32,000 nucleotides of DNA from an uncultured Pseudomonadota bacterium (GTDB lineage: Bacteria > Pseudomonadota > Alphaproteobacteria > Rs-D84), in the NCBI GenBank assembly GCA_902774305.1, contig CACYHY010000006.1, positions 5,649 to 37,648 on the forward strand, written 5' to 3'. The translations under genes were made by a program, and so were the position numbers. Under the pieces are notes generated by a model. That model made no database searches. It was not told the DNA's origin and saw nothing but the letters and a program-made list of their open reading frames with translations. Positions 27,618 through 29,517 of the stretch are shown one piece after another (the first letter of the stretch is position 1; each line of letters starts with the position of its first letter).

Positions 27618-28064
27618 TCAAAGTGATAAGGCAAAAAAACTTTCTAATTTTTTTTGATTCAAAAAATTTTGCGCAGGCAAAAACAAATTTTCTTTATGCT
27701 TTTTCAACATATAATCTACATTCATCCAATACCATCCAGAACATTTATCCGGTTCCATAACATATGCTGTACGAAAAACAGGTAATTTTGCATGACAATG
27801 TATCGTTATATAATGCTTATCAGAAAATATATCATTTGTTACACCAACAATACGAAAATCATCTGGTTTTAAATGAATATTTGTTTCTTCAATCAATTCA
27901 CGTGCTGCACATTGTTCTGGGGTTTCACCGAATTCCAAATGGCCACCCGGTGGTGCCCATGTGCCATTACCATGTTTGGACAAGCGATATCCAAATAAAG
28001 TCTGTCCATTTGGGTCTTGAACCCAAGCCCCCACACCAACACGAACAATATTATTTTCAGACAT
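27618..28064 (-). CDS. Nudix hydrolase, paralogue 1 (148 aa)
   Basis: Nudix box GGHLEFGETPEQCAARELIEETNI. Start placed at the ATG at 28064 (GGAG 6 nt upstream); the ATG at 28076 is also possible. Confidence 0.85.
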   Translation of the reverse strand: MSENNIVRVGVGAWVQDPNGQTLFGYRLSKHGNGTWAPPGGHLEFGETPEQCAARELIEETNIHLKPDDFRIVGVTNDIFSDKHYITIHCHAKLPVFRTAYVMEPDKCSGWYWMNVDYMLKKHKENLFLPAQNFLNQKKLESFFALSL

Positions 28065-28084
28065 TTTTTGCTCCATATACCTAC

Positions 28085-28112
28085 ACTATAACCCCCAATA
28101 AACGAAACACAA
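28085..28112 (-). promoter_or_regulatory. Candidate promoter for Nudix-1/mltG
   Basis: Minus strand TTGTGT (28112-28107), 16 nt, TATAGT (28090-28085). Confidence 0.35.
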
Positions 28113-28128
28113 TTATTTTTTATAAAAA

Positions 28129-28159
28129 TTGACAAACAATATCTTTGTATTATTATAAT
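28129..28159 (+). promoter_or_regulatory. Promoter, leaderless-type, of the radical-SAM gene
   Basis: TTGACA (28129-28134). TATTAT at 16-nt spacing or TATAAT (28154-28159) at 19 nt. The ATG at 28166 is 6 nt after the -10, with no SD. Confidence 0.5.
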
Positions 28160-28165
28160 AATACC

Positions 28166-29002
28166 ATGAATAAAGAATTAGTTATCAGTTTCAAAATTAC
28201 AAATTGGTGCAATCTACACTGCGACCACTGTTGTGAACGCAGTAATAAACACAACAAACCAAACTTTATGTCTTTGGAAAAAATGGAAAGATTTTTATCT
28301 GAATCCAAAACTATGGACATTCGCCCAAACCAATTATTAACTATTGGTGGTGGCGAAGCATTGGCACCATATATGTTTGGACAACCACAATATATCCCCA
28401 GCGCACTGGATTTAATATATTCTTATGATTATATTCCTACATTAAAAACAAATGGAACATGGGGCAATAATAATTCTTTGCGTCCACTGATATTATCAGA
28501 TATTGCGCGTTGCGCGTATAAACATATGAAACTGGTAACATTGGATATATCTGTGGACGAATTCCACGACAACAAAAGTGGCGTTATAAAAATCATGCGC
28601 GATATATTATGCACCCCCGATTTATGCTACGCGATTCGCATTTGTCTTGTTGGATTTAATACACCAGAATCCGCCGCAACATTGCTTAATGTAAAACAAC
28701 AATTAACAGAAAATAAATTTGAAATAGATGAATTGCCTAATAAAGATTGGGCGGTTTATGCCCCGAATCAATCTTATGGTGCATATGTAATAAATAATTT
28801 TGGTGCCCCTATTTATAACTTGGGACGCGCAAAACAAACAAAAACATTTACATCAATCGCAAACCCAAATGGCAACGATGGTTCTAATTGTTTACAAATC
28901 GATAATAACGATTACGCAATTTTGAATTACACATATCGTGAGCCAATTAAAAATCGCACATTAAATGAAGTCGTTTCTTCTTTGATGACAAAAGCACGTT
29001 AA
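28166..29002 (+). CDS. Radical SAM enzyme of unassigned subfamily (278 aa)
   Basis: CNLHCDHC = CX3CX2C at aa 15-22. TIGGGEAL (GGE SAM motif). ...LKTNGT... I saw no SPASM-like C-terminal Cys cluster. Start set at the ATG at 28166 (the ORF track begins at TTG 28145). Confidence 0.8.
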   Translation: MNKELVISFKITNWCNLHCDHCCERSNKHNKPNFMSLEKMERFLSESKTMDIRPNQLLTIGGGEALAPYMFGQPQYIPSALDLIYSYDYIPTLKTNGTWGNNNSLRPLILSDIARCAYKHMKLVTLDISVDEFHDNKSGVIKIMRDILCTPDLCYAIRICLVGFNTPESAATLLNVKQQLTENKFEIDELPNKDWAVYAPNQSYGAYVINNFGAPIYNLGRAKQTKTFTSIANPNGNDGSNCLQIDNNDYAILNYTYREPIKNRTLNEVVSSLMTKAR

Positions 29003-29409
29003 AGAACTTTTTGATTTAATAAATTTTGCACAGGCCAAAACAAGTTCTGCGGTAAATTACCCATATCAAACCAATACCATCCTGCGCATTTATCTTTCTC
29101 TATCACAGATGGCATCATTTTTACATCTTTCACACGATAATGAGCATTTATATAATGCAACCCATTTGCTATATCTTCCGTTTTACCTAAAGATTCCAAC
29201 ATACGTGGCGTTATATGAATACCCGTTTCTTCCCACGTTTCACGAATCGCGGCATCAACCAAACTTTCACCCGCATCAGGTTTACCGCCTGGTACAGACC
29301 ACATACCATAACCCTGTTTAGACAAACGCAATCCCATTAAAACCTGATTATTTGGATTAAACAACCAAACCCGAACACCTGTCTTAATAATATTTTCATT
29401 TGGTGTCAT
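28999..29409 (-). CDS. Nudix hydrolase, paralogue 2 (136 aa)
   Basis: Nudix box [24 protein letters not shown]. Trimmed to the ATG at 29409 ([15 protein letters not shown]...), because the upstream part of the ORF is read through tRNA-Pro. Confidence 0.85.
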
Positions 29410-29440
29410 AACAAACCCTATGCATATAAAAAACAAAATA

Positions 29441-29517
29441 TGGTCGGGGCAACAAGATTCGAACCTGCGACCTCTACGTCCCGAACGTAGCGCTCTACCA
29501 GACTGAGCTATGCCCCG
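29441..29517 (-). tRNA. tRNA-Pro (anticodon CGG), 77 nt with encoded CCA
   Basis: The reverse complement CGGGGCATAGCTCAGTCTGGTAGAGCGCTACGTTCGGGACGTAGAGGTCGCAGGTTCGAATCTTGTTGCCCCGACCA folds as a cloverleaf. It has a 7-bp acceptor stem, GCTC/GAGC D stem, CTACG/CGTAG anticodon stem with loop TTCGGGA, and a GGTTCGAAT T-loop. Confidence 0.93.

Follow-up and report, generated by a model that had tools for sequence, protein, structure and literature searches.

A variable cargo slot in a housekeeping frame as the probable setting of a Nudix-bracketed, EpeE-related radical SAM gene between fabF and mltG

The DNA considered here is a stretch of 32,000 nucleotides (nt) from an uncultured alphaproteobacterium of the lineage Rs-D84 (NCBI GenBank assembly GCA_902774305.1, contig CACYHY010000006.1, positions 5,649 to 37,648 of the forward strand), hereafter called the window. 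Between fabF and mltG, it carries a gene for a radical S-adenosylmethionine (SAM) enzyme, here called rSAM, which is bracketed by two Nudix genes, Nudix1 and Nudix2, and accompanied by a tRNA-Pro(CGG) gene. In an initial annotation, the trio was proposed to form a module for modified nucleotides. Comparison with related loci favors another reading, to which we assign a probability of roughly 60%: the junction would be a fixed housekeeping frame around a slot with lineage-specific cargo on the opposite strand, here a single-cluster rSAM related to the peptide epimerase EpeE, and not a three-gene cassette. The frame would lead from fabF via tRNA-Pro(CGG) and Nudix2 to the slot, and from there via Nudix1 to mltG, with cargo that differs by lineage.

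The window and its relatives were compared as gene neighbourhood loci (numbered with the prefix L) rather than as complete genomes. Open reading frames (ORFs) were called in all loci and clustered, and the set was reduced to 47 non-redundant rSAM loci. Sampling from the Nudix side yielded seven distinct loci with close Nudix1 homologues (55-70% identity), none of which (0/7) contains rSAM, and five of these loci represent the same fabF-mltG junction (L059, L060, L068, L069, and L070/71). L060 reads fabF-tRNAPro(CGG)-Nudix-mltG; two unrelated small genes are additionally present in L059 and an extra epimerase gene in L068, and the order in L070/71 is fabF-tRNAPro(CGG)-Nudix-tRNAPro(GGG)-flavodoxin-epimerase-mltG. 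In L069, both Nudix genes are found around a different cargo: fabF-tRNAPro(CGG)-Nudix2 orthologue (81%)-opposite-strand gene for a protein of 197 amino acids (aa)-Nudix1 orthologue (68%)-mltG. The product of this slot gene (L069:7310-7903, minus strand) has an N-terminal membrane anchor, sub-threshold similarity to methyltransferases and an EIGSGFGG motif, and tblastn found no trace of an rSAM remnant in the L069 junction. With a fabF that is 85% identical to that of the window (86% in L008), L069 ranks level with the closest two-Nudix relatives outside the window's own lineage. A Nudix gene followed by mltG with a gap of 38-57 nt is present in the rSAM-less loci L059, L060, and L069 (34 nt in the window), and tRNA-Pro(CGG) is found at the junction in 13 of the 13 junction loci scanned, with or without rSAM.

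The reverse situation is also encountered. In L010 and L014, rSAM is located at the junction without a Nudix gene. In another context, rSAM also lacks a Nudix neighbour throughout the most divergent part of its family, subclade d (~20 loci). By their fabF (85% identity), L010, which has only rSAM, and L060, which has only Nudix, are near-sisters, and their contents complement each other. Of the 47 loci, 14 have a Nudix gene of this subfamily at most 8 kb from rSAM, and six have one directly adjacent to it; none occurs in subclade d. An arrangement identical to that of the window was found in three further samples, L063-65, whose rSAM proteins are the window's closest relatives (86-88% identity). 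Nudix2 has orthologues in L008 (79%), L063 (85%), and, as mentioned, L069. The Nudix bracket is, hence, stable within the window lineage, yet it is not a unit. The idea that the ~2 kb between fabF and mltG constitute a single inserted cassette does not survive this comparison, as Nudix1 and tRNA-Pro and, in near relatives, also Nudix2 are already resident where rSAM is missing. Inspection of the junction in relatives, as had been proposed, revealed that the frame is kept while the content of the slot varies by lineage. It yielded in part the outcome that had been named beforehand as a refutation: Nudix1-mltG is ordinary resident context in the rSAM-less L059, L060, L068, and L070/71. The adjacency of rSAM and Nudix does recur outside this genome, with the same order in L063-65 and a Nudix gene within 8 kb in the 14 loci, but as a conserved module it fails, with 6/47 loci adjacent, 0/7 reciprocal cases from the Nudix side, and the frame of L069 lacking rSAM.

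Gene calls were based on the ORF list and ARAGORN, which confirm the order read initially, i.e., mltG, Nudix1, rSAM on the opposite strand, Nudix2, tRNA-Pro(CGG), and fabF. The features, in window coordinates, are as follows.

26576-27583, minus strand: mltG (YceG family), from the ORF list, with its ATG at 27583; orthologues in relatives have PF02618
27634, minus strand: alternative TTG start of mltG, overlapping the 3' end of Nudix1
27618-28076, minus strand: Nudix1, 152 aa, NUDX1/NUDT15/MutT-like (Pfam 64.4 bits); stop 34 nt before the mltG ATG
28077-28165, no strand: divergent spacer of 89 nt between Nudix1 and rSAM, holding the promoter-like site
28100-28119, plus strand: copy A of a 20-nt direct repeat, AAACGAAACACAATTATTTT, 95% identical to copy B (19/20)
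28129-28156, plus strand: promoter-like site TTGACA-16-TATTAT, 11/12 consensus matches, ending 10 nt before the rSAM ATG
28145, plus strand: alternative TTG start of rSAM, which would give 285 aa
28166-29002, plus strand: rSAM, 278 aa from the ATG, single [4Fe-4S] cluster (Pfam Radical_SAM 30.7 bits)
28999-29409, minus strand: Nudix2, 136 aa, diverged paralogue of Nudix1, convergent with rSAM, the stops overlapping by 4 nt
29441-29517, minus strand: tRNA-Pro(CGG) (ARAGORN; Rfam 64.8 bits), resident directly downstream of fabF
29544-29563, plus strand: copy B of this repeat (20 nt), which overlaps the stop codon of fabF
29562-30812, minus strand: fabF, from the ORF list; orthologues have PF00109/PF02801
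30923-31156, minus strand: acpP, from the ORF list
31295-31978, minus strand: integrase-like gene (Phage_int_M / Arm-DNA-bind_3), adjoining acpP and running off the window end

In Escherichia coli, the order at this junction is acpP-fabF-pabC-mltG/yceG. The window resembles it in having acpP-fabF and then mltG with a small insert in between, but the insert is pabC in E. coli and tRNA-Pro with one or two Nudix genes and variable cargo here. Nudix1 is probably co-transcribed with mltG, into which it would read, and Nudix2 would follow tRNA-Pro; rSAM is probably transcribed from its own promoter-like site, although the number of such sites across the region is not above chance. An Rfam scan for riboswitches and small RNAs in the region gave the tRNA alone.

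Further tRNA-Pro genes are found near these Nudix genes. Extra tRNA-Pro(GGG) genes adjoin the resident Nudix gene in L003 (8162-8238), L015 (5134-5210), and L070 (7144-7220), and a tRNA-Pro(TGG) gene lies beside Nudix in L043, in another backbone. Thus, tRNA-Pro genes and this Nudix subfamily seem to be linked across backbones. As an alternative, non-functional explanation for the recurring adjacency, the tRNA-Pro genes (CGG, GGG, TGG) beside Nudix in both backbones may mark a recombination-prone spot. The slot can also hold other genes beside rSAM: in L001 (3359-5885, minus strand), it additionally contains an MBOAT O-acyltransferase and a 381-aa partner without a Pfam hit, an AlgI/DltB-like pair next to rSAM and its usual neighbour, P1 (see below).

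Nudix1 and Nudix2 are diverged paralogues. They are 45% identical over 136 aa (expectation value, E, 2e-38), close to the ~40% that had been estimated by eye, and 60% identical overall at the nucleotide level; the reported match of 29/36 nt between the segments encoding their C-termini is exact on recount. Both are recognized by the Pfam Nudix model (PF00293; 64.4 bits for Nudix1 and 66.2 bits for Nudix2, cut-off 21.1). The catalytic REx2EE of the Nudix box (consensus GX5EX7REUXEEXGU) is retained in both proteins, one of the two boxes being GHLEFGETPEQCAARELIEETNI, and the catalytic Glu residues are kept. The boxes, initially described as intact, each depart from the strict consensus at one position, i.e., RELIEETNI in Nudix1 (G to N) and RETWEETGI in Nudix2 (U to T). 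The best match of Nudix1 in the PDB is 4KYX of Rickettsia felis (E 2e-26), followed by AtNUDX1 (E 1e-21). Both proteins match AtNUDX1 (E 1e-21 to 9e-21), NUDT15 (E 1e-10 to 5e-14), and rose NUDX1, and they align end to end with the NUDX1/NUDT15/MutT-like group (AtNUDX1 6DBY, RhNUDX1 6YPB, NUDT15 5BON, and 4KYX; E values quoted for the end-to-end matches, 1e-16 to 2e-26), with which they share the C-terminal tail EP(D/E)KC.GW.W...LP..LF.P. They differ from this group in the presence of two diverged copies at one locus. Substrates in the NUDX1/NUDT15 subfamily range from 8-oxo-dGTP and DHNTP to geranyl diphosphate. Against the MutT equivalogs, Nudix1 reaches 31.8 bits (TIGR00586, cut-off 97.9) and 33.1 bits (NF008044, cut-off 148) and Nudix2 scores lower, and neither protein attains the cut-off of any NCBIfam equivalog. 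With 608 matches at E<1e-10, the Nudix family far exceeds the rSAM family in size. To judge from this homology, both proteins are most likely housekeeping pyrophosphohydrolases engaged in nucleotide-pool sanitation, which would hydrolyse damaged or non-canonical nucleoside triphosphates or similar diphosphates.

Two observations on the Nudix genes may be added. The synonymous divergence (dS) of Nudix1 from its counterpart in L008 (4035-4517) is 0.33, far below that of its neighbours (mltG 1.13, fabF 0.75, rSAM 1.63, and Nudix2 0.98), for which local recombination or gene conversion is a possible cause. A gene of L013 (1943-2962, plus strand) encodes a fusion of a Nudix domain of this subfamily with a DNA-glycosylase domain of the UDG superfamily (Pfam E 3e-10), with an N-terminal hydrophobic stretch; the fusion gene is co-directional with a peptidase S51 gene, rSAM, and P1.

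The rSAM protein contains the motifs CNLHCDHC (residues 15-22), TIGGGEAL (from residue 59), and LKTNGT (from residue 93) at the positions noted initially. It is only just recognized by the Pfam Radical_SAM model (PF04055; 30.7 bits, cut-off 29.5). In an alignment of 29 family members, C15/C19/C22 and G62-G63-E64 are invariant, and the invariant elements as a whole comprise TNWC..C.HCC, GGE, KTN..W, S.DE, G..T, and GRA. Outside C15/C19/C22/C23, the only Cys conserved in the family is C242 (at least 90% conserved), which excludes an auxiliary iron-sulfur (Fe-S) cluster and bears out the earlier remark that no auxiliary-cluster domain could be seen. The AlphaFold (AF2) model (pLDDT 91.9) predicts a partial TIM barrel followed by a small, β-rich C-terminal part. 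When this model was used in a Foldseek search, all of the top 31 fold matches were radical SAM enzymes. The best were nine chains of EpeE/YydG (E 5e-12 to 6e-11, TM up to 0.64), followed by SkfB (E 5e-7), viperin (E ~1e-6, TM 0.40-0.47), and then anSME and PflA (E 2e-5).

Sequence comparisons point in the same direction. YydG of Bacillus subtilis (EpeE; PDB 8AI1-8AI6; TIGR04078) is the best match of rSAM by profile sequence search, by fold, and by hhalign: hmmsearch against the PDB gave YydG at E 4e-13 over residues 7-191, and hhalign against the YydG orthologue P0199 a probability of 98% over columns 9-166, the C-terminal parts remaining unaligned. The two share motifs beyond the generic core (C.x.C.HCC, tGGE, NG.WG, and L.iS.DE.H), but their identity is just 17-18%, and the NCBIfam YydG model (TIGR04078) is matched at 43.2 bits, with a cut-off of 300, over the N-terminal 140 residues only. 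The defining features of EpeE are the H-atom donor Cys223 and an additional [4Fe-4S] cluster, which is housed in a T-SPASM/twitch domain (PMC13012085). This domain with its auxiliary cluster is absent from rSAM. A correspondence of C242 with Cys223 was considered but not adopted: P0199 has cysteines at positions 207, 223, 224, 290, 293, and 294, Cys223 lies in a PCC motif, and C242 would correspond to Cys207, if to any. The genomic setting differs as well, as the EpeE operon encodes a small precursor peptide, a protease, and an ABC transporter, none of which is encoded beside the rSAM of the window, and the usual partner of rSAM is a protein of 200-410 aa (P1) in place of a peptide of ~49 aa. 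Some relatives have OEP-MFP-MacB genes downstream of rSAM, without a recognizable precursor peptide.

Other families are more distant. Viperin and its prokaryotic homologues (pVip) are, like rSAM, single-cluster enzymes of ~280 aa without an auxiliary cluster and give weak N-terminal matches to hidden Markov models (HMMs), but the viperin model is matched far below its cut-off (NF038283; 26.9 bits, cut-off 180), the identity in the fold match is 10%, a kinase partner gene is lacking, and rSAM was not found in phage and viral collections. The MoaA GTP 3',8-cyclase model (TIGR02666) gave 19.5 bits with a cut-off of 284, and the C-terminal Cys triad is absent; QueE, PflA, and NrdG were not among the NCBIfam matches at E<=0.01. 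Searches of Pfam, NCBIfam, PADLOC, and PHROGs placed rSAM at the superfamily level or gave sub-threshold matches only. The HMM-based classification that had been proposed as a check thus does not assign the protein squarely to QueE, PflA/NrdG, or MoaA, and the initial inability to place it in a characterized subfamily stands, with every NCBIfam match far below cut-off. A phage or viral origin was discarded, as the IMG/VR viral contigs gave nothing past generic N-terminal similarity and the GenBank phage genomes gave no match. A word-indexed search retrieved 110 homologues, nearly all of 276-290 aa and either without a name or labelled as coming from alphaproteobacterial metagenome-assembled genomes. 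When 1.84 billion cluster representatives (50% identity) were searched exhaustively with a profile, ~25 relatives were found at E<1e-30, below which the scores drop sharply to radical SAM proteins of 315-335 aa that are likewise uncharacterized and score 28-36 bits on the YydG model. In GTDB contigs, with one genome per species, the family occupies 48 loci, all in gut or rumen Alphaproteobacteria, including Candidatus Enterousia. Thus, rSAM represents a new subfamily, of about 280 aa, of the known radical SAM superfamily and is a distant single-cluster relative of the peptide-modifying branch, outside the YydG family and not near the radical SAM enzymes that act on nucleoside triphosphates (NTPs).

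The commonest conserved neighbour of this family is P1, an orphan family confined to the same clade. In 20 of the 47 loci, its gene directly follows rSAM in the same direction, separated from it by 0-15 bp, and the number rises to 24 when distances of up to 8 kb are counted. The following genes are examples.

L001:6840-7991, plus strand: P1
L003:6843-7937: P1
L005:6815-8038: P1
L036:8828-9832: P1
L041:8807-9433: P1

The protein measures 200-410 aa and comprises an N-terminal domain with the signature EWYLFDS...FMDL.CG.AY, which is missing from short forms, a run of basic helical repeats of ~14 residues (K.Y.E.NKE.I), and a C-terminal domain in which four cysteines are invariant. Searches of Pfam, NCBIfam, PDB sequences, and PDB folds gave no match; the repeats alone find relatives among GIY-YIG (PF01541) and HNH (PF01844) endonuclease-like proteins. 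In the window lineage, the locus has lost P1: the protein is cut short to 262 aa in L008 and missing altogether from L063-65 and from the window, where tblastn was negative.

At least five contexts of the rSAM family can be distinguished: (a) the fabF-mltG junction; (b) rho-c6 divergent from rSAM-P1, followed at some distance by OEP-MFP-MacB; (c) an LpxL-like acyltransferase gene and rSAM, with or without Nudix, and then OEP-MFP-MacB; (d) PFK divergent from LysM-rSAM-P1 with a gene for a 580-aa protein, in ~20 loci with the most divergent members; and (e) a MetK-like gene divergent from rSAM. In context (d) (L036:5631-9832; L041:8807-11180), where PFK is on the minus strand, the LysM gene overlaps the start of rSAM, and the 580-aa protein contains HENMH...EEHKAD and lacks a Pfam hit. 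Occasional divergent neighbours of rSAM are a flavodoxin gene (L015/16) and a SAM-synthetase-like gene (L013/17/18), both of which make sense as support genes for any radical SAM enzyme. The c6 proteins of context (b) form a secreted, Cys-rich family with the motif C..Y..CM..YC.RE.TAYNRCYCS (L062:8469-9362; L005:4968-5906). In that other backbone, c6 is the downstream neighbour of Nudix and divergent from rSAM. A 944-aa protein encoded in the window at 3672-6506 (minus strand), ~22 kb from the junction, clusters with the c6 family.

As a member of its superfamily, rSAM would cleave SAM reductively to generate a 5'-deoxyadenosyl radical, which would abstract an H atom from the substrate. A protein or peptide is the most likely substrate because the nearest characterized relative by sequence and fold is the peptide Cα-epimerase YydG/EpeE; remote homology and gene order together thus suggest that rSAM probably abstracts an H atom from a protein or peptide. 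P1 would be a candidate substrate or partner subunit, and its position directly downstream of rSAM with gaps of 0-15 bp suggests translational coupling.

Several observations weigh against the frame-and-slot interpretation and the peptide substrate. The rSAM-Nudix adjacency is also seen in a second backbone, near rho, where rSAM is located between Nudix and c6 in L043, whereas Nudix and c6 are direct neighbours in the rSAM-less L062. In L020 and L026, Nudix takes the usual place of P1 and follows rSAM co-directionally and without any gap (0 bp). L024 and L032 have Nudix in divergent orientation to P1 paralogues, L021/23/31 have it in tandem with flavodoxin, and flavodoxin is, as mentioned, divergent from rSAM in L015/16. 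Such shifting pairwise adjacency of rSAM, P1, Nudix, and flavodoxin can resemble a loose functional module. Furthermore, the kinship with YydG is remote and rSAM lacks the defining auxiliary-cluster domain of EpeE, which weakens the inference about the substrate, and the repeats that P1 has in common with endonuclease-like proteins hint at nucleic-acid binding rather than at a substrate role. Finally, a missing partner may be encoded elsewhere in the genome, as the comparison covered loci only.

These observations lead to other explanations. Possibly, rSAM, P1, a NUDX1-type Nudix, and flavodoxin form a loose clade-specific set in gut Alphaproteobacteria, which would be a new radical SAM system acting on a nucleotide or nucleic acid, with P1 as a nucleic-acid-binding or Fe-S partner, Nudix processing the product, and the window presenting a reduced version with rSAM and Nudix; we regard this joint proposal as doubtful. 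The original proposal, that rSAM makes a modified nucleotide from an NTP in the manner of viperin or MoaA and that the Nudix proteins hydrolyse the product or by-products in an antiviral, cofactor, or sanitation role, is unlikely. It can draw on the Nudix genes near rSAM in 14 of the 47 loci, in several contexts, on the co-directional pairs of L020/L026, on the weak N-terminal viperin matches (26.9 bits in NCBIfam and 27.7 bits for pVip in PADLOC) and the viperin structures among the fold matches, and on the Nudix-flavodoxin tandems with flavodoxin beside rSAM. However, YydG/EpeE is clearly closer than viperin in both sequence and fold, the viperin, MoaA, and QueE models are matched far below cut-off or not at all, and the viral and phage collections gave no more than generic similarity. 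Moreover, L069 keeps the two-Nudix frame around a different gene, L010, L014, and subclade d have retained rSAM with no Nudix beside it, Nudix occurs without rSAM in all seven sampled Nudix loci, and the rSAM of the window is encoded on the strand opposite to both Nudix genes. The Nudix subfamily is found outside the clade too, for example in Rickettsia (4KYX), as judged from the Nudix match alone. The cargo swap in L069, the loci without Nudix, the opposite strands, and the peptide-epimerase kinship leave the trio without support as a module for modified nucleotides, the more so as the commonest neighbour of the rSAM family, P1, is missing from the window. Quite unlikely, too, is a role of rSAM in the modification or repair of DNA or RNA, with P1 as a nucleic-acid-binding adaptor and the MutT-like Nudix as a thematically linked damage gene. 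Such a role would accord with the relatives of the P1 repeats, with the co-directional Nudix-UDG, peptidase S51, rSAM, and P1 genes of L013, and with the single cluster plus one conserved extra Cys (C242) of rSAM; spore-photoproduct lyase has a similar make-up. It is contradicted by the lack of kinship with SplB, RlmN/Cfr, or any other nucleic-acid radical SAM enzyme in NCBIfam, PDB sequence, and fold searches; the fold of P1 has no PDB match, so that its DNA binding is an analogy only, P1 is absent from the window, and the linkage with Nudix is weak on the same grounds as above.

The location of the slot 3' of a tRNA gene, with cargo that varies between relatives, could also indicate a small mobile or defence islet consisting of rSAM, Nudix2, and tRNA-Pro, integrated site-specifically 3' of tRNA-Pro. 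This is very unlikely, even though the 20-nt direct repeat (28100-28119 and 29544-29563) flanks these genes and both sites are kept in L063-65, extra tRNA-Pro(GGG) copies are associated with cargo in L003, L015, and L070, and an integrase-like gene is located beyond acpP. The latter gene is conserved at the same position in all relatives examined, including those without rSAM, and looks like a resident, perhaps domesticated, recombinase and not an island integrase. The repeat, which is also present upstream of rSAM in L009 and L007, is absent from L008 and L069. It could be a recombination scar, but in AT-rich DNA a sequence of 20 nt may equally be a regulatory element common to both sites or a coincidence. 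PADLOC-DB 2.0 detected no full-length defence component and no full model was matched: the pVip matches of rSAM (27.7 and 25.3 bits) cover its N-terminal part only, and PDC-S07 (35 and 30 bits) matches partially, over the Nudix box. The GC content is slightly lower (0.34 vs. ~0.39). Furthermore, the identities of rSAM and fabF rise and fall together across loci (Spearman 0.74), and genomes without rSAM are nested among those that have it; both findings are in line with vertical descent of rSAM accompanied by repeated loss and exchange of cargo. Horizontal replacement of rSAM had been suspected from its higher divergence and was rejected: synonymous sites are near saturation in all neighbours and the rSAM and fabF identities are correlated, which makes vertical descent the simpler reading.

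That the rSAM of the window is a decaying, non-functional leftover of an rSAM-P1 pair is highly improbable. The truncation of P1 in L008 and its absence from the window might suggest so, and the slot of L007 (7474-7964) has accumulated gene debris, as a Nudix remnant of 70 aa and an rSAM fragment of 87 aa immediately precede the intact gene there. However, the rSAM ORF of the window is of full length and has all of the 27 invariant family residues (27/27), the arrangement is kept in the three further samples L063-65, and a promoter-like site lies directly upstream. The ratio of nonsynonymous to synonymous divergence (dN/dS) relative to relatives is 0.14-0.27, and it is 0.16 between the closely related L009 and L007, which lack P1 (proportions of nonsynonymous and synonymous differences, pN and pS, 0.025 and 0.139). 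Because rSAM stays under purifying selection in this P1-less lineage, it is, on the evidence available, functional without an adjacent P1.

A Nudix-bracketed, nucleotide-modifying cassette would, if real, have added a new type of small-molecule or defence module, and a literature search found no described rSAM-Nudix neighbourhood system. The evidence says, however, that the Nudix bracket arises as a side effect of synteny on either side of a variable slot, and the nucleotide-cassette claim is not to be carried forward. The locus illustrates how a tRNA-proximal slot in a core operon neighbourhood exchanges cargo while the frame around it stays fixed. The lead that emerges, modest but real, is the rSAM itself, a family of ~280 aa that is confined to Candidatus Enterousia-like Alphaproteobacteria of gut and rumen and is related to EpeE with loss of the auxiliary-cluster domain. 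Characterization of the rSAM-P1 pair, present in 20 of the 47 loci, could reveal a new radical SAM reaction or a new type of partner.

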